Assembly (NCBI GenBank): GCA_963169295.1
Contig: CAUJDD010000104.1
Span: 1,085-65,084, forward strand
Direction: 5' to 3'
Source: Bacteroidota bacterium
GTDB taxonomy: Bacteria > Bacteroidota > Bacteroidia > B-17B0 > Aurantibacillaceae
DNA: 64,000 nt
Position 1 is the stretch's first letter; every line of letters begins with the position of its first letter. A program made the translations under genes and the position numbers. Below the pieces are notes generated by a model that saw only the letters and a list, made by a program, of their open reading frames with translations, was not told the origin of the DNA and did no database searches. This document shows positions 26,133 to 33,740 of this stretch, one piece after another.

Positions 26133-26519
26133 TTATTTCCTATTTAGCATTAATTCCAAAACAGAAATACGTTTATCTTTTTCGAGCAATAATTTTTCGT
26201 AAAGTTCTTTTAATAATTTTACTTCGGTTTGATGGTATATGGTGTTTTCATATTTGCCTCCCTGCTGGTTGTTGCCGTTATTAAAAATAATAGTTGCATC
26301 AAAACCTAATATTTCCTGAGGCGTAACCGCTAATATTTTACTTATCTCATTTAATCTATTAATAGTTAGTTGTGTTTCGCCACTTTCTATTTTACTATAG
26401 GCGCGTGTAGATAATCCAAGCTCCTGCGCCATATATTCTTGCGATAAATTTTTTAATTCTCTTATCTGCCTAATTTTTTCGTTTAAATTTTCTATCATCA
26501 TTTTACCTAAATAGTTCAA
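26133..26519 (-). CDS. XRE-family helix-turn-helix transcriptional regulator
   Basis: IRQIRELKNLSQEYMAQELGLSTRAYSKIESGETQLTINRLNEISKIL is a canonical HTH_3 motif. The C-terminus has coiled-coil character. The true start may be the internal MIENL. It is divergent from the precursor-peptide gene. Confidence 0.88.
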   Translation of the reverse strand: MNYLGKMMIENLNEKIRQIRELKNLSQEYMAQELGLSTRAYSKIESGETQLTINRLNEISKILAVTPQEILGFDATIIFNNGNNQQGGKYENTIYHQTEVKLLKELYEKLLLEKDKRISVLELMLNRK

Positions 26520-26684: not shown

Positions 26685-26903
26685 ATGAGAAAATTTAAAA
26701 GATTAACTTTGGACCTGTTCAAAGGTTATGAATTAAAAAAAGAAAGCCATAATATGGTTTTAGGTGGTACTCAAGTGATGACTGGTAAGCCAGGAGGATG
26801 TCAATTACCAGACACTGCTGATGACAAAAGTAAAACCCCGAATGGCGGTGGCCCGGGCATACCTACATGGCCCAAAGAAGATATTACTGTGAATAGTAAG
26901 TAA
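26685..26903 (+). CDS. RiPP precursor peptide with a double-glycine (GG) leader
   Basis: 72 aa in total. The leader MRKFKRLTLDLFKGYELKKESHNMVLGG has Leu at -12, Val at -4 and GG at -2/-1. The 44-aa core TQVMTGKPGGCQLPDTADDKSKTPNGGGPGIPTWPKEDITVNSK is rich in Thr/Ser, Asp/Glu, Lys and Gly/Pro. It lies directly upstream of maturases and a C39 exporter. Confidence 0.8.
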   Translation: MRKFKRLTLDLFKGYELKKESHNMVLGGTQVMTGKPGGCQLPDTADDKSKTPNGGGPGIPTWPKEDITVNSK

Positions 26904-26976: not shown

Positions 26977-27966
26977 ATGAAAAAAGCCGTCATATTTATT
27001 TATCTATGTTTTACTATAAAAAATTGTATAGCACAATTTGATAGTACTCATTATTACCTTAATTCATTACAATACAAAAAAAGTATAAATTACTTAAAAA
27101 GGGAAATTAAAAAAAACGCTTATATCAAGTATAAAAATGGCAATACAACCGCCAAAGATGTTGACGAGATTAATTTAGCTTGCATATATTCATTAAATAA
27201 TGAATATGATAACTGTTTAAAACAATTAAACACATTTGTTAAAAGTAAAACTAATAAAGATGGGTTTTATATTCCTAATAAATGGAGCAACTATGATTAT
27301 TATATTTCTTTCTACACTGATCCAGATTTTTATAGAGTCTCTGTGGCACGTCCAAATGAATGGAAATCTTTTCTAGTTAAGCATAAACATAAGTGTGAGA
27401 TAACGGATACGTTTTTTAGAAAATTAAATATTCCAGATAGCATTTATACTGCTTTAATTCAAATAGGCATAAACGACCAAGCTCATTATCGTGAGATATT
27501 ATTTTATGAAGATAAATATGGTTCACAATCGTCAACAGCTTTAAAATTATGGAAAGAGAAGGATAGTTTAAATAAAGCAAATTTGAAAACTGTTATGTAT
27601 TATTTAGATAGTGGCTATAATGTTTTATCTGATTCGGTAGTTGGTAACTTTTCAAATAAATGTTTTTTAGTTATACAACATGCCGACTTGAAAACACAAG
27701 AAAAAATATTACCTCTAATAAAAAAATTATATGAACAAAAAAAGATACAAGGTAGTAACTATGCGCTGCTTTTTGATAGAATATCAGTTGATAAAAATAA
27801 TGGTACGCAGTTTTATGGTACCCAAATAAACAGTAAAACCAATCAACCATTTTTTATTAAAGATGAAGTAAATGTAGATAAACGGCGTGCAGAATTTGGA
27901 ATGGAATCTATGGCTGATTACTGTAAACGATTTAATATAATTTATAAGCCAAAAAAAACAAAGTGA
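26977..27966 (+). CDS. Secreted protein of unknown function (DUF6624-like C-terminal region)
   Basis: Has the signal peptide MKKAVIFIYLCFTIKNCIAQ. The C-terminal block CFLVIQHADLKTQEKILPLIKKLYEQKKIQGSNYALLFDRISVDKNNGTQFYGTQ resembles what I remember of DUF6624 proteins, but this was not verified. Confidence 0.55.
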   Translation: MKKAVIFIYLCFTIKNCIAQFDSTHYYLNSLQYKKSINYLKREIKKNAYIKYKNGNTTAKDVDEINLACIYSLNNEYDNCLKQLNTFVKSKTNKDGFYIPNKWSNYDYYISFYTDPDFYRVSVARPNEWKSFLVKHKHKCEITDTFFRKLNIPDSIYTALIQIGINDQAHYREILFYEDKYGSQSSTALKLWKEKDSLNKANLKTVMYYLDSGYNVLSDSVVGNFSNKCFLVIQHADLKTQEKILPLIKKLYEQKKIQGSNYALLFDRISVDKNNGTQFYGTQINSKTNQPFFIKDEVNVDKRRAEFGMESMADYCKRFNIIYKPKKTK

Positions 27967-28925
27967 TCCTAATACTTTCAACAGAGAAAGAACTCTTAAC
28001 TCAAAACGTAATAAATTGGCTTCTATATTATAATATAGAATTCAAACGATTTAATGATGGCGATATAACAAATCCTGAGATTAATATTTCAAATAATACA
28101 ATTAAGATAAATTTCATCGATCAGAATGAATGTAGTATCGATTCATTAACAAAATATTGGTATAGAAGAGGATATTTAGACTTTACCAATAGCTTACTAA
28201 TTGGTGATAACGATATGATTATTGAAATAAATAAACACAAAACCGATAATGATAATGACATTATTAATTATATACATTATTATCTGCAAACAAATGTCAG
28301 CAACGTAAATAGTTTTAATGATAATTCTTTAAATAAATTAACTGAACTTACTGTGGCGCGGAAATTAGGAATTAAAATCCCCGATACTTTAATAACCACT
28401 AATAAAAATTCAGTTCTATCTTTTATAATTAAACATAAAAAAGTTATTACAAAACCAATAAAAAGGGCATTAAATTTTAAAATTGAAGGGGTGAATTTTT
28501 ATACTGAAACACATTTACTAACAGCTAACGATGTAATGAATTATCCTAATAACTTCTCGCCTATTAAACTACAAAATTATATTGAAAAAGCATTTGAATT
28601 AAGAGTGTTTTATTTAGATGGAGTATTTTACTCCTCAGCAATTTTTTCACAGAATGATGAACAAACAAAAATTGATTTTAGAAATTATAATGAATCGAAT
28701 CCAAATAGAGTCTTACCGTTTAATATGCCAAAAACTGAAGAAGCAAAATTTAGAAAGTTGATGAAAGCATTAAACCTTAATTCAGGCTCATTAGATATTA
28801 TTGTAACCAAGGATGGTGAATATGTCTTTTTAGAAGTAAATCCAGTAGGTCAATTTACTCAAGTTTCTTTTCCGTGCAATTATTATTTAGAAAAACAAAT
28901 GGCAATAAGCCTATCAAAACGATAA
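27963..28925 (+). CDS. ATP-grasp peptide maturase (RimK/MvdC-D-like; grasp-with-SPASM system type)
   Basis: GTG start overlapping the upstream stop. ATP-grasp blocks are NKLTELTVARKLGIKIPDTLIT, VITKPI, ELRVFYLDG, IDFRNY and GSLDIIVTKDGEYVFLEVNPVGQF. Confidence 0.82.
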   Translation: MILILSTEKELLTQNVINWLLYYNIEFKRFNDGDITNPEINISNNTIKINFIDQNECSIDSLTKYWYRRGYLDFTNSLLIGDNDMIIEINKHKTDNDNDIINYIHYYLQTNVSNVNSFNDNSLNKLTELTVARKLGIKIPDTLITTNKNSVLSFIIKHKKVITKPIKRALNFKIEGVNFYTETHLLTANDVMNYPNNFSPIKLQNYIEKAFELRVFYLDGVFYSSAIFSQNDEQTKIDFRNYNESNPNRVLPFNMPKTEEAKFRKLMKALNLNSGSLDIIVTKDGEYVFLEVNPVGQFTQVSFPCNYYLEKQMAISLSKR

Positions 28926-28926
28926 T

Positions 28927-29133
28927 ATGGAACCGTATAAACTAATAGAGCAAGCATCGTTGAATCAAATAAACAAACTACCTATTACTTACAAAAAAAT
29001 GGCAAGTTCAACCGATTTGAATTCACCAATAAGTATCATATCTGATACAATATTTGTAAAAAGTACAAGACATCAAACGCCTTTTTTTGGAGGAATTCGA
29101 TTTTACAAAAACATTGAAATATTCATAATCTAA
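28927..29133 (+). CDS. 68-aa hypothetical protein embedded between the two maturase genes
   Basis: The ORF fills the ATP-grasp/SPASM gap exactly, with a 1-nt spacer on each side, suggesting translational coupling. I recognised no motif. Confidence 0.5.
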   Translation: MEPYKLIEQASLNQINKLPITYKKMASSTDLNSPISIISDTIFVKSTRHQTPFFGGIRFYKNIEIFII

Positions 29134-29134
29134 A

Positions 29135-30256
29135 ATGATAAATAAAAATTATTGTGTAACAACAACTTGCTTTCCTATTAAAGGTTTTCTAAGAACTGCT
29201 ATATATGATTTGCCAAAAGCTACTTATGAATTTGTACCTAATGCGGTTCATGATTTTTTGAGACTACTCTCACAAAAATCATTTTCTCAAATCTATAGAA
29301 ATACTACTGAAGAGAATAAAACATATTTAAGTGAATATTTTCAATATTGCCTAGAGAAAGAATATATATTAGAAATCCCTAATGAGATTAATAAAAAACA
29401 TTTTCCAAAACTAAATTTAAATTTTGAGTTTCCAAGTATAATATCCAATTTAGTTATAAGAGTTAATAAAGATCTTGATTTTGAAAAGATTAAAGATATA
29501 CTTGTTTCTTTAAAATGTTTTAATATTCAATTAATAACTGACTCTACATTTGATATAAATAAAATTGAACAATACTTAGATGTAATTAAAGACATTGGTC
29601 TACATTCTATTGAACTTATAGTGGCATATAGCCCTGGTATTAACTATGAATTATTAACTAACAAATATAAAAACATTGCGTTTATCTTTATTTATTCTGC
29701 ACCTGTTAACAAATTTATTAAAAGACATGTTTTAGGTTTACAACAAATATTTACTTCAAAAAACAAGTTTGAAATCACTCATATTAAATCGTTAGATTTT
29801 TTTAACGTAAATATAACTTTGTTTACAGAATCACAACTACATAATACATATTTTAATCGTAAACTATTCATAGGAGATAAGGGGGAAATTAAAAATTCGA
29901 TAGAGTCACCGACAGAATTTGGAAATATAAATAATCTAAAGCAACCCGACGATATCTTAAAAATTATAAATTCGATTGAATTTCAAAAATATTGGTTTAT
30001 ACATAAAGGTATAATAGATGTATGTAAACAATGTGAGTTTCGGTATATGTGTGTTGATAATAGAATACCGTTACAACGCAACGAAAAAGAATGGTATTTC
30101 GATACAGAATGTAATTATAACCCCTATATTGCGAAATGGCGTGGCGAAAAAGGATACAAGACTTTATCAGAATGTGGTGTTACATCAAACCAAGAGGGCT
30201 TTAAGTTAAATCGCAAAAAAATAAACACAATAAATAAAGAATTGTGGGGCGATTAA
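29135..30256 (+). CDS. SPASM/twitch-like domain peptide maturase lacking the canonical radical-SAM CxxxCxxC motif
   Basis: The C-terminal Cys cluster is G-IIDV-C-KQ-C-EFRYM-C, then 19 residues to a Cys, then 20 residues to another Cys. The N-terminus has only C7 and C12 (CVTTTC), and no CxxxCxxC occurs anywhere in the 373 aa. Confidence 0.7.
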   Translation: MINKNYCVTTTCFPIKGFLRTAIYDLPKATYEFVPNAVHDFLRLLSQKSFSQIYRNTTEENKTYLSEYFQYCLEKEYILEIPNEINKKHFPKLNLNFEFPSIISNLVIRVNKDLDFEKIKDILVSLKCFNIQLITDSTFDINKIEQYLDVIKDIGLHSIELIVAYSPGINYELLTNKYKNIAFIFIYSAPVNKFIKRHVLGLQQIFTSKNKFEITHIKSLDFFNVNITLFTESQLHNTYFNRKLFIGDKGEIKNSIESPTEFGNINNLKQPDDILKIINSIEFQKYWFIHKGIIDVCKQCEFRYMCVDNRIPLQRNEKEWYFDTECNYNPYIAKWRGEKGYKTLSECGVTSNQEGFKLNRKKINTINKELWGD

Positions 30257-32439
30257 GTTTTACTCATTATAAACAACCCGATGAAATGGCCTGTGGCGCA
30301 ACTTGTTTGCGCATGATTGCCAAGCACTACGGTAAGTCCATCTCATTGCCTGATATAGTTCAACTAAGCGGAACCACAAGAGAGGGGGTTAACTTACTAG
30401 GTATAAGTGAAGCTTCTGAAAGGCTAGGATTTAGAACACTAGGAGTAAAAGTCCCATTTGATAAATTAATTGAAAATGCCCCCTTGCCATGTATTGCGCA
30501 TTGGAATCAAAACCATTTTGTTGTAATTTATAAAATTAAGGCTGATAAAATTTATATTGCAGACCCTGCACACGGTTTATTAACGTATAACAAAGTAGAT
30601 TTTTTAAAAGCATGGGTGAGCGATGGTAAAGATGAGGGGATTTTATTACTATTTGAAACCACTCCCGAATTTTACACAGAGGATAAAAGTCTTTCAAACG
30701 AGAAGCAAAAAAACAATTTTTCTTTTTTATACACCTATTTAATTAAACATAAAAAAGCCATAATACAACTCTTTATTGGTTTAATGGCAGGTAGCCTGTT
30801 ACAGCTTATCTTCCCATTTTTAACGCAAAGCATTATTGATATTGGTGTTCAAAATAAAGACATAAACTTTATCTACTTAATTCTCTTAGCTCAATTAATG
30901 GTGTTTTTTGGCAGAACTACCATCGATGTCATAAGAAGTTATATACTAATGCACGTTAGCAGCCGAATTAATATCTTGCTGGCAAGTGATTTTTTTGTAA
31001 AACTCATGAAGTTACCTATACGGTACTTTGACACTAAGATGACAGGGGACATCATGCAACGCATAAATGATAATCACAGGATTGAAAATTTTTTAACTGG
31101 CTATTCACTAAATACACTATTTTCATTGTTTAATTTTATCATATTTAGTGGAGTTTTAGCTTGGTATAGCTTAAAAATATTTTTAGTTTTTTTGATTGGC
31201 TCTGTTATCTATTTTATTTGGATAACCTTTTTTTTAAAACGCCGTGCCGATCTAGATTTTAAACGTTTTCAGCAAAGTAGCCAAAACCAAAGTAAGGTAA
31301 TGGAACTCATTAACGGAATGCAGGAAATTAAACTACACAATGCCGAACGGCAAAAGCGTTGGCAATGGGAGAACCTACAAACCAAATTATTTAAGATTAA
31401 CTTAAAGGGACTTTCTTTAACCACCGCCCAAAACTCAGGCTCACAATTAATTAACGAACTTAAAAACATTATTATCACTTTTTTATCAGCCAAATTAGTA
31501 CTTGACGGTCAAGTTACCTTAGGCATGATGCTTTCTATAAGTTATATCATCGGTCAGTTAAATAGTCCTGTAAACGAAATGGTGCATTTTATTCAGCAAT
31601 GGCAAGATGCTAAATTAAGTTTGGAGCGTTTAGGAGAAATTCATAACAAAGAGGATGAAGAACCTAATGGTAAAGAAAAAATTTCAGAAATTGAACAAAA
31701 CAGTTCATTTCACCTAAATAACCTTACGTTTAAATATGAGGGCGTAGGAAATGATGCTGTTCTATACGATTTAAGCGTTTCCATTCCGTCCAATAAAATT
31801 ACAGCCATAGTTGGAAGTAGTGGTAGTGGTAAAACAACCTTATTAAAACTCTTACTAAAATTCTATGAACCTACGCATGGAGAAATAAAATTAAACGAAA
31901 TAAATCTTAATCATTTATCAGCACAAACATGGCGAAATAAATGCGGTGTTGTAATGCAAGAGGGGTATATTTTTAATGATACCATCGCCAACAATATAGC
32001 TGTTGGAGTAGATGTTGTAGATAGAGATAAATTAAAACATGCTGTTAATGTAGCTAATATTAAAGAGTTTATAGAAAGCCTACCTTTAGGATATAATACT
32101 AAAATAGGCATGGAAGGTATTGGTATTAGTACAGGGCAAAAGCAAAGAATTTTAATTGCTAGAGCCGTTTACAAAAACCCTGATTATTTATTTTTTGATG
32201 AAGCTACAAGTGCTTTAGATGCTAATAATGAAAAAATAATAATGGAAAATTTAAACGAATTCTTTAAAGGTAAAACGGTTGTGATTATTGCCCATCGTTT
32301 AAGTACAGTTAAAAATGCTGACCAAATTATTGTTTTGGATAGAGGTAAGATTATTGAAAAAGGTAATCATATCGAATTGACACTAATTAAGGGGGCATAT
32401 TACGAACTTGTGAAAAATCAATTAGAATTAGGAAACTGA
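30244..32439 (+). CDS. Peptide cleavage/export ABC transporter with an N-terminal C39 (double-glycine) peptidase domain
   Basis: The C39 catalytic context is QPDEMACGATCLRMIAKHYG, with HWNQNHFVVIY (His) and ADPA. A 6-TM domain follows. Walker A is GSSGSGKTT, the signature motif is STGQKQR and Walker B is LFFDEATSALD. The start codon is GTG. Confidence 0.92.
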   Translation: MGRLSFTHYKQPDEMACGATCLRMIAKHYGKSISLPDIVQLSGTTREGVNLLGISEASERLGFRTLGVKVPFDKLIENAPLPCIAHWNQNHFVVIYKIKADKIYIADPAHGLLTYNKVDFLKAWVSDGKDEGILLLFETTPEFYTEDKSLSNEKQKNNFSFLYTYLIKHKKAIIQLFIGLMAGSLLQLIFPFLTQSIIDIGVQNKDINFIYLILLAQLMVFFGRTTIDVIRSYILMHVSSRINILLASDFFVKLMKLPIRYFDTKMTGDIMQRINDNHRIENFLTGYSLNTLFSLFNFIIFSGVLAWYSLKIFLVFLIGSVIYFIWITFFLKRRADLDFKRFQQSSQNQSKVMELINGMQEIKLHNAERQKRWQWENLQTKLFKINLKGLSLTTAQNSGSQLINELKNIIITFLSAKLVLDGQVTLGMMLSISYIIGQLNSPVNEMVHFIQQWQDAKLSLERLGEIHNKEDEEPNGKEKISEIEQNSSFHLNNLTFKYEGVGNDAVLYDLSVSIPSNKITAIVGSSGSGKTTLLKLLLKFYEPTHGEIKLNEINLNHLSAQTWRNKCGVVMQEGYIFNDTIANNIAVGVDVVDRDKLKHAVNVANIKEFIESLPLGYNTKIGMEGIGISTGQKQRILIARAVYKNPDYLFFDEATSALDANNEKIIMENLNEFFKGKTVVIIAHRLSTVKNADQIIVLDRGKIIEKGNHIELTLIKGAYYELVKNQLELGN

Positions 32440-33740
32440 TGCCATCTATAGAAGAAAAGGAAATAATTTTGCGTTCAGAAGAAGTAAATGAGATATTGAC
32501 TTCAACACCGAAATGGATTTTACGCTGGGGTATTTTAGTTGTTTTTATATTGATTATTATAACTATTGGACTTTCATATTTTATTAAATACCCAGATGTA
32601 TTGACTGCTGATGTTACTTTGACTACATTAAATCCACCAATAACATTAGTTTCAAAAAATAATGGAAAACTTACCCATCTTTTAGTGAAAGATAAACAAT
32701 TGGTAAGCCAAAATGAACCGATTGGTATTATAGAGAACACAGCCGATTACAAAGCTGTACTTTCTTTATTGGCAAACTGCAATCAATTAAACGAACAATT
32801 AAAATTAAACGACACACTTAATAATGTTTTAATTAAAGATAGTTTAAGAACTGGAGAAATTACACCTTACTACTTACAATTTTTAAAATCAGTCAAAGAC
32901 CTTAATCTTTATGAAAGCATTAATCCTTACACTAAACAAATTGCATTATTGAAAAAAGATTTAGGACATTACAATTCTTTGCTTGATAATTATAAGCATC
33001 AACAAAAAATTAACGATGAACAATTAAAGTTAGCTGAAAATGACTTTAATCGGGATAAAAAATTATTTGAAGAAAGGGCAATATCAGCAAGGGAATTTGA
33101 AATACAAAAGAAAAATTATTTAGGTGCTCAAAACAGTAATGAACAAACTAAGATTACAATTTCAAATGCACTAATTCAAATTAATGGAATTGAAAAGAAC
33201 ATCTTACAGTTACAAATACAAGATTATCAAGAAAAGGCGAAACTTAAAAATGAATTATCACAGTATTTAAAAACGCTCATTAATGAAATTAATAAATGGA
33301 AGCAGTTATATGTAATTGAAAGCCCTGTGAGTGGGAAAGTATCGTTTTTTAATGTATGGGCAATCAATCAAAACATCAAACAAGGTGATGAGCTTTTTGC
33401 TATCATTCCTAATAAGAAACAGCAATTTATAGGAAAATGTGTTTTGCCAATAACCAATAGTGGGAAATTAACCATTGGACAAGTTGTAAACATAAAACTT
33501 GACAATTATCCTTATAATGAAAATGGGATGTTAACAGGGGTTGTAAAAAACATTTCCGAAGTGCCTAATAAAGATAGTTATGCAGTTGATATTGTTTTAG
33601 CGAATGGCTTAACAACTTCGTACAATAAAACTCTAGTATATAAAGAACAAATGAAGGGCAAAGCAGATATTATAACGAAAAATATATCCGTTTTAGATAG
33701 AGTATTTTTTAATTTTCGTAAACTAACAGAAATAAAGTAA
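32439..33740 (+). CDS. HlyD-family membrane-fusion/secretion adaptor protein
   Basis: An N-terminal TM helix (WGILVVFILIIITIGLSYFI) is followed by a long coiled-coil middle region and a C-terminal beta-barrel-like region. The start overlaps the ABC gene stop. Confidence 0.85.
   Translation: MPSIEEKEIILRSEEVNEILTSTPKWILRWGILVVFILIIITIGLSYFIKYPDVLTADVTLTTLNPPITLVSKNNGKLTHLLVKDKQLVSQNEPIGIIENTADYKAVLSLLANCNQLNEQLKLNDTLNNVLIKDSLRTGEITPYYLQFLKSVKDLNLYESINPYTKQIALLKKDLGHYNSLLDNYKHQQKINDEQLKLAENDFNRDKKLFEERAISAREFEIQKKNYLGAQNSNEQTKITISNALIQINGIEKNILQLQIQDYQEKAKLKNELSQYLKTLINEINKWKQLYVIESPVSGKVSFFNVWAINQNIKQGDELFAIIPNKKQQFIGKCVLPITNSGKLTIGQVVNIKLDNYPYNENGMLTGVVKNISEVPNKDSYAVDIVLANGLTTSYNKTLVYKEQMKGKADIITKNISVLDRVFFNFRKLTEIK

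Follow-up and report, generated by a model that had tools for sequence, protein, structure and literature searches.

Gene clusters that pair an ATP-grasp peptide maturase with a SPASM-domain protein, known as grasp-with-SPASM systems, have been described more than once. In passages of Makarova et al. 2022 (PMC8939145), a SPASM protein co-occurs with the ATP-grasp enzyme in the "branch 5" loci, which comprise the ATP-grasp, TIGR04193, a cluster 23 protein and an LPL small protein, the last belonging to a family found directly upstream of the SPASM gene; the same co-occurrence is reported for "group 14" (Carter et al. 2026, PMC13097080), and the PGAP gene names gwsG and gwsS are in use (bioRxiv 10.64898/2026.08.04.741601). 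The locus analyzed here lies in a 64,000-nucleotide stretch of DNA from a Bacteroidota bacterium (contig CAUJDD010000104.1, positions 1,085 to 65,084; hereafter the window, whose first letter is position 1), and its SPASM-domain protein, the 373-amino-acid GwsS, is the subject of this analysis. Compared with the TIGR04193/TIGR04192 systems, branch 5 and group 14, the window locus has the same family, the same operon order, the small upstream open reading frame (ORF) and precursors with a double-glycine (GG) leader; no family-level differences separate the TIGR04193 family from the window GwsS.

GwsS is a member of TIGR04193, a curated NCBIfam equivalog named "grasp-with-spasm system SPASM domain peptide maturase", with 190.6 bits against a cut-off of 175 and a match that runs from residue 8 to residue 336 of the protein and from position 4 to position 333 of the 342-position model; it is already known and annotated, and it is no new kind of protein. 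An NCBI entry with one substitution (Q270P), derived from a metagenome-assembled genome (MAG), reads [quoted passage not shown], and a Pfam scan of the 373-residue sequence gave no match. The family counts 3,665 representatives at 50% identity (E ≤ 1e-3), and the best 150 matches of GwsS in the representative search were all family members, with no canonical radical-SAM (S-adenosylmethionine) relative among them; a species-level genome scan found 235 encoded GwsS relatives, and 80 loci were retrieved, nearly all from Bacteroidota.

In published descriptions GwsS figures as a radical-SAM enzyme, with thioether formation as its probable activity, or as the holder of typically two auxiliary clusters; the name of TIGR04193 omits "radical SAM". 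Neither description is supported by the sequence data: GwsS has no radical-SAM triad and a single four-cysteine site. The reading favored here, held with moderate confidence, is that GwsS is a pseudo-radical-SAM accessory partner of GwsG in a Bacteroidota grasp-with-SPASM graspetide cluster, acting without SAM cleavage.

Cysteines of GwsS and the missing radical-SAM motif

Regarding its cysteines, GwsS has nine, at positions 7, 12, 72, 128, 297, 300, 306, 326 and 347, and none of them forms the radical-SAM motif CxxxCxxC, as an earlier note on this DNA had reported and as the translation bears out. The C-terminal pattern described in that note, G292-x4-C297-x2-C300-x5-C306 followed by C326 (x19) and C347 (x20), was found as well, with an arginine (R310) at the x3C position. 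An upstream or alternative start, or a frameshift, had been named as what could restore CxxxCxxC; this check was run, and none of the six frames of 28000-30600 contains the motif, so that an alternative start, a frameshift or another frame is rejected as its source. The in-frame sequence upstream is full of stop codons, and the start codon is correct because the homologues of GwsS align from residue 2-4 onward.

The same absence is found throughout the family. CxxxCxxC occurs in none of the 236 GwsS homologues and, outside the four C-terminal cysteines, these share no conserved cysteine triad, no position exceeding about 78%. Among the 227 full-length sequences, C297, C300, C306 and C326 are 100% conserved, and the other cysteines are conserved to 78% (C347), 76% (C128), 56% (C12), 8% (C72) and 2% (C7); position 258, a serine in the window protein, is a cysteine in 36% of the sequences. 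The lack of the motif is a family trait, neither chance nor a sequencing error, because no homologue has it and the four C-terminal cysteines are invariant; the earlier observation of a SPASM-like protein that stands beside an ATP-grasp enzyme and has no radical-SAM cysteine triad holds across the whole family.

Pfam Radical_SAM (PF04055) matched none of 105 family members at E ≤ 1, and PDB profile searches with GwsS matched no radical-SAM protein. GwsS is outside the radical-SAM superfamily, since the defining motif, the profile match and the (βα)6 barrel were all tested and all three are absent.

As for a separate radical-SAM partner, none is encoded in the window, where no ORF of at least 150 amino acids (aa) contains CxxxCxxC. 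The surroundings of gwsS were compared in a survey of 86 related loci plus the window, 71 of which were evaluable, that is, had enough upstream sequence; an ORF of at least 200 aa with CxxxCxxC lies within 6 kb of gwsS in only 6 of these 71, one such ORF being MiaB-like. A regular true radical-SAM partner for GwsS is rejected on these counts.

Predicted fold and the four-cysteine site

The AlphaFold2 model of GwsS was built on 105 homologues and reached a predicted local distance difference test score (pLDDT) of 96 and a predicted TM-score (pTM) of 0.90. At the N-terminus, the model has a domain like the recognition element (RRE) for peptides that are made ribosomally and modified post-translationally (RiPPs): residues 5-74 form four β strands and then helices 36-47, 50-56 and 59-74 (DSSP on the model), which is the arrangement of a winged-helix RRE, a sheet followed by three helices. 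Foldseek matched this part to the lasso-peptide RRE TbiB1 (5V1V) over 87 columns, with a probability of 0.99 and a target TM-score of 0.69.

In the model, the central α/β domain is built from four strands (105-110, 130-135, 158-164 and 181-187) with three helices between them; with about four βα units it falls short of the (βα)6 partial TIM (triosephosphate isomerase) barrel, and it has about half the size and strand count of the radical-SAM (βα)6 core, of which it may be a remnant. It is the least conserved region of GwsS (mean column conservation 0.34), and no conserved loop follows its first strand. The C-terminal domain is instead the most conserved one, with a mean column conservation of 0.61 versus 0.34-0.41 elsewhere in the protein; in the model it is largely loop-rich, bears the cysteines and has a terminal helix.

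When the full-length model was searched against the PDB with Foldseek, the only significant matches were CteB (5WHY/5WGG; E 6e-5, probability 1.0) and SuiB (5V1Q), two RRE-radical SAM-SPASM maturases of RiPPs that are the best full-length fold matches, with E 6e-5 to 2e-4 and a probability of 0.95-1.0. GwsS has in common with them the domain order, that is N-terminal RRE, α/β domain and cysteine-rich C-terminus, as well as the CX2CX5C motif; it differs in the absence of CxxxCxxC, in having a ~110-residue, four-strand α/β domain in place of the (βα)6 barrel, and in the missing cluster I ligands, and the overall TM-score is ~0.3 at a sequence identity of 9-11%. Both CteB and SuiB carry N-terminal RREs in their published structures.

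In order to place the cysteines, the SPASM-region sequences of SuiB (5V1Q) and PqqE (6C8V) were taken from the PDB and added to the C-terminal alignment of the family (MAFFT). The CX2CX5C of both aligned to C297, C300 and C306, and the last cysteine of PqqE to C326; the Gx4C hairpin of both aligned to G250-EIKN-S255, where the glycine is 96% conserved in the GwsS family and the hairpin cysteine has become a serine. The G292-x4-C297 spacing, taken earlier for the SPASM Gx4C, is a coincidence. The first SPASM cysteine has no counterpart in GwsS, and R310, at the x3C position, is an arginine in 92% of the members; the seven-cysteine SPASM signature CX9-15GX4C...CX2CX5CX3C...C is present only as CX2CX5C and one distal cysteine, all invariant. 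In the structure of anSME, the ligands of auxiliary cluster II are the first three cysteines of CX2CX5CX3C plus the distal cysteine, and those of cluster I are the hairpin cysteine, an upstream cysteine and the x3C cysteine. Because of this assignment and of the alignment, GwsS appears to keep a complete cluster II-type ligand set and to have lost cluster I (S255, R310).

As for the family models, TIGR04085 (SPASM) matched all 22 tested C-terminal domains of the family at E ≤ 1, the best at 4.8e-8, and PF13186 matched 13 of the 105 members, not including the sequence one residue off the window GwsS (P0001). A domain-only AlphaFold model of the C-terminus had a pLDDT of 85.6; 4 of its 16 weak matches are the Twitch/SPASM radical-SAM enzymes BtrN, anSME, CteB and TigE, and the weak matches align ~80 of 159 residues at a TM-score of ~0.3. 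The C-terminus of GwsS is probably a strongly diverged, extended SPASM derivative, an assignment that is weak at the domain level.

Twitch domains, as in the structures of BtrN and anSME, keep a cluster I-type site beside a functional radical-SAM core, whereas in GwsS it is apparently the cluster II-type site that has been kept, with no radical-SAM core beside it. The Twitch domain of BtrN (4M7S), which is the top, non-significant, domain-level fold match of the GwsS C-terminus, resembles it in being a reduced SPASM-type domain with a single auxiliary cluster (predicted in GwsS).

The pseudo-rSAM family TIGR04150, of the GG-Bacteroidales system, gave weak matches in 7 of the 22 GwsS C-terminal domains (best 1.7e-5); the window GwsS scored 18 bits against a cut-off of 250, and it is not a member. 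Both are Bacteroidota families linked to GG-leader peptides and have a SPASM-like C-terminus, and GwsS resembles the pseudo-rSAM concept that TIGR04150 already represents in NCBIfam. Judging from the family name and from the TIGRFAMs entry, TIGR04150 proteins presumably have no radical-SAM cysteine triad and presumably pair with a true radical-SAM maturase; the partner of GwsS is instead an ATP-grasp enzyme, usually with no radical-SAM neighbor.

Finally, two other matches were set aside: in the PDB, the full-length profile matched only 7UEK "OT3", a de novo designed TIM barrel, across the repeated βα units of the latter and residues ~80-171 of GwsS (29372-29647) with E 9.4e-7, probably owing to idealized βα repeat composition and not to homology, and the C-terminal profile matched only cobrotoxin, by chance. 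A Foldseek search of GwsS against viral structures gave nothing informative.

Candidate roles of GwsS

In all of the 71 evaluable loci, an ATP-grasp gene lies upstream of gwsS on the same strand, with a median gap of 178 nucleotides (nt). As for the substrates, GG-leader peptides are encoded upstream in 59 non-redundant related loci, and the cores of these peptides, hypervariable in sequence, abound in Gly, Thr, Ser and Asp. A C-terminal domain far more conserved than the rest of GwsS, alongside such variable cores, fits a protein that touches a conserved partner. Together with the RRE-like domain and with the strict coupling to the ATP-grasp, this conserved face and these variable substrates make an obligatory, non-radical accessory role the most likely one. 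A cysteine-dependent thioether crosslink has been suggested in passages of PMC8939145. Thioether formation on core cysteines is rejected as the common function, because the cores are cysteine-free in 16 of the 59 loci; in the filtered set each core has 0-4 cysteines.

In the mechanism that we infer for GwsS as a partner of GwsG, the protein would descend from peptide maturases of the RRE-rSAM-SPASM kind that CteB and SuiB represent. The SAM-cleaving cluster loop would have gone, the barrel would have been cut to about four βα units, and the ligands of auxiliary cluster I would have been lost, leaving one four-cysteine site equivalent to cluster II and a protein that would not cleave SAM. The RRE-like domain would bind the GG leader of the precursor and the conserved C-terminal metal or Fe-S domain would dock onto an ATP-grasp as conserved as itself, possibly joined there by the small LPL/FYK protein; GwsS would be an obligatory subunit in macrocyclization by the ATP-grasp, presenting the substrate or activating the reaction, and cleavage and export by the C39-ABC exporter would follow.

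A graspetide synthetase that needs a co-purifying partner protein was demonstrated in 2026, with an unrelated partner (PMC13097080). This partner, MirC of the rosaritide graspetide synthetase, is not a ligase, co-occurs strictly with the ATP-grasp, and is needed for the activity and the stability of the ligase, and it is proposed here as a functional analogy for GwsS; MirC differs from GwsS in its unrelated fold (a PpiC-type chaperone domain) and in having no cysteine cluster, and it belongs to another graspetide group and phylum.

The earlier note had envisaged three options for this protein: auxiliary Fe-S binding without SAM cleavage, a non-canonical SAM-cluster site, or a scaffold or peptide-binding partner for the ATP-grasp. 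The first and the third are still candidates, and the third gains from the RRE-like N-terminal domain of the model; the second is unlikely. The prospect of a mechanism new to RiPP maturation was overstated, in view of the curated family TIGR04193, the related pseudo-rSAM family TIGR04150, the published loci and the precedent of a partner-dependent graspetide synthetase.

Several points weigh against the accessory role, or against the domain assignments on which it builds. A Pfam scan of the 105 members gave no PqqD sequence match, and it is the similarity in fold that points to an RRE function. At the C-terminus, TIGR04085 gave 14.4 bits for the window domain, below the cut-off of 27 (E 0.037); the domain-only model had no significant match in the PDB (E 2.5 or worse); and hhalign of the C-terminal profile against the single SPASM fragments of SuiB and PqqE gave non-significant E values of 0.28 and 0.42, even though its registers agree with those of the MAFFT alignment. 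The grouping of the four cysteines into one site is a prediction from sequence, which suits [4Fe-4S], [2Fe-2S] or zinc alike, and the invariant polar residues near this site (E232, K291, E301 and N329, among others) would equally fit a catalytic center. Finally, the literature search found no experimental study of the GwsS family, nor a characterized product or SPASM-like component of a grasp-with-SPASM system, and the scaffold role is wholly something that we infer.

These polar residues lead to the first alternative, in which GwsS is a tailoring enzyme that uses a single Fe-S cluster for a SAM-independent redox or Lewis-acid modification of the core, before or after cyclization; this is possible, if doubtful. 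The extreme conservation of the C-terminal domain, with its invariant Glu, Lys and Asn residues and many near-invariant Arg, Lys, Tyr and Trp around the cysteine site, would suit an enzyme to which the RRE-like domain delivers the substrate, and passages of PMC8939145 indicate that a further modification by the SPASM protein is assumed in genomic analyses. However, the hypervariable cores offer no obvious common target beyond the Thr/Ser, Asp/Glu and Lys used by the ATP-grasp ligases, and a core cysteine is missing in 16 of the 59 loci. In addition, we know of no SPASM domain with SAM-independent catalysis, which counts against this alternative.

Rather unlikely is the reading in which GwsS is a SAM-independent Fe-S protein with a chemical or regulatory role and the LPL/FYK protein is a trans-acting, leader-like activator. 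GwsS might then install a second, unseen modification on the graspetide cores, or the ATP-grasp might be gated by the redox state of the orphan auxiliary cluster II; if true, the SPASM scaffold would be put to a new use, and recognition would follow a logic of three proteins that has so far not been described among RiPPs.

Less probable again is that the four cysteines bind a structural zinc and that GwsS is a metal-stabilized adaptor devoid of Fe-S, a variant of the scaffold model. A CX2C pair with two distal cysteines is a common zinc-site pattern, 14 of the 105 members weakly match DUF2284 ("predicted metal-binding protein"), and the carriers of the system include many aerobic Bacteroidota (Flavobacterium, Tenacibaculum, Aquimarina), but the spacing of CX2CX5C and the distal cysteine, as well as the hairpin, align with the SPASM cluster II ligands, and the fold match points to a family that descends from Fe-S proteins.

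It is very improbable that GwsS belongs to the radical-SAM enzymes by way of a non-canonical SAM cluster, made from the four C-terminal cysteines or from the scattered C12 and C128. Non-canonical radical-SAM cluster motifs exist, in ThiC, Dph2 and HmdB, and C128 and C12 are partly conserved, as given above; against this, no cysteine outside the four-cysteine site is conserved above about 78%, the invariance of all four C-terminal cysteines suggests a cluster whose irons are all ligated, leaving none open to SAM, the fold has about four βα units and lacks a conserved loop behind its first strand, and the Radical_SAM profile matches 0 of the 105 members. As for a decaying, functionless relic of a radical-SAM gene, suggested by the loss of the catalytic motif and of part of the barrel, it is effectively refuted by conservation, since the ORF is intact, the family has thousands of representatives and a conserved C-terminal domain, and gwsS adjoins gwsG in 71 of 71 loci.

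The locus, its relatives and their significance

The genes of the window locus, the domains of GwsS and the radical-SAM-motif ORFs of related loci are collected in Table 1.

Table 1. Features of the grasp-with-SPASM locus (window positions) and of related loci (positions within each locus, given by its L number)
Feature	Coordinates	Strand	Basis or remark
XRE-type helix-turn-helix (HTH) regulator, divergently transcribed	26133..26519	-	HTH_3, 7.2e-15
Precursor peptide, 72 aa, double-glycine leader (…NMVLGG followed by TQVMTGKPGGCQLPDTADDKSK…)	26685..26903	+	
DUF6624 protein, N-terminal signal-like segment	26977..27966	+	PF20329, E=9e-14
GwsG, ATP-grasp peptide maturase	27963..28925	+	TIGR04192, 281.9 bits vs cut-off 230
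Small 68-aa protein ("LPL family") directly upstream of GwsS	28927..29133	+	Locus survey
GwsS (grasp-with-SPASM system SPASM-domain protein, pseudo-radical-SAM), 373 aa	29135..30256	+	TIGR04193 match, AlphaFold2 model
GwsS, N-terminal RRE-like (PqqD-like winged-helix) domain, residues 1-82	29135..29380	+	AlphaFold2 model, Foldseek
GwsS, shortened α/β domain, residues ~100-210, no cluster loop	29432..29764	+	AlphaFold2 model
GwsS, diverged SPASM-like C-terminal domain, residues 215-373	29777..30253	+	Conservation, TIGR04085, fold search
GwsS, four invariant cysteines C297, C300, C306, C326; predicted single metal or [4Fe-4S] site	30023..30112	+	Conservation and alignment
ABC exporter with C39 peptidase domain (cleaves and exports GG-leader peptides)	30244..32439	+	Peptidase_C39 2e-34, ABC_membrane, ABC_tran
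HlyD-family periplasmic adaptor	32439..33740	+	TIGR01843 3.1e-28, HlyD_3 5.5e-11
~440-aa ORF with radical-SAM motif, L039	9269-10606		
~440-aa ORF with radical-SAM motif, L057	8578-9924		
~440-aa ORF with radical-SAM motif, L066	1185-2492		
~440-aa ORF with radical-SAM motif, L083	11775-13080		
~440-aa ORF with radical-SAM motif, L059	369-1700		

The same gene order occurs in relatives at 77% identity (L001, L002) and at 34-37% identity (L003-L006); the XRE regulator has the same position in L001, L002 and L005, and the DUF6624 gene in L001 and L002. The DUF6624 protein begins with a hydrophobic, signal-like segment (MKKAVIFIYLCFTIKNCIAQ), and it is probably the "cluster 23" family, predicted in passages of PMC8939145 to be a secreted protein or lipoprotein; DUF6624 is known to co-occur with graspetide clusters (PMC13097080).

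As for the gap between gwsG and gwsS, it contains a small ORF in 61 of the 71 loci. Short motifs recur at two places in this conserved small-ORF family, LP[VIL] near the N-terminus and [FYH]YK.I at the C-terminus; [FYH]YK was found near the C-terminus of 44 of 59 unique copies, versus a shuffle mean of 2.7 (maximum 6). With its pair of linear motifs, the small protein may be a peptide-like ligand of GwsG or GwsS. No mention of the C-terminal FYK motif was found in the passages of PMC8939145 that were consulted. No NCBIfam model matches the precursor or the small ORF, and the promoter and terminator scan gave counts at background level.

Among the precursors, distant cores have in common the cysteine of a G-C-Q motif, as in the window (KPGGCQLPDTADDKSK) and in L003 (3654-3923; GPDGCQKDSQQLDKTQ). 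Regarding radical-SAM neighbors, a minority of the Bacteroidales gws loci encode a ~440-aa ORF with a canonical radical-SAM motif (e.g., IAPTMDCCFNCHYCFE), at least 1.4 kb from gwsS; these ORFs may be genuine rSAM/SPASM maturases acting on the same or on a neighboring peptide.

The region 28001-30000, which holds gwsG, the small ORF and gwsS, has the lowest guanine-plus-cytosine (G+C) content of the window, 0.253 versus about 0.29-0.35 elsewhere, a value compatible with horizontal acquisition; gws clusters have been reported on conjugative elements of Porphyromonas gingivalis (bioRxiv 10.64898/2026.08.04.741601). Single genomes can carry four to six separate gwsS loci with differing precursors, which implies paralogous expansion: six were found in one MAG, AlinenLipids_bin-7249 (L013, L014, L050, L053, L055 and L069), and four in LS6_sbin.61 (L023, L051, L063 and L081). 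Two loci come from MAGs assigned outside Bacteroidota, L022 (Phycisphaerales) and L061 (Candidatus Endomicrobiellum), for which horizontal transfer or a binning error could be the explanation.

In conclusion, GwsS is a well-defined target in a known family and no new class. Because GwsS has no radical-SAM site, a single four-cysteine site and an RRE-like domain, and the precursors are cysteine-free in about a quarter of the loci, the tests that fit are those of complex formation and leader binding, rather than the search for a sactionine-type crosslink; the system to which they apply is very large, with several loci per genome in some Bacteroidota.

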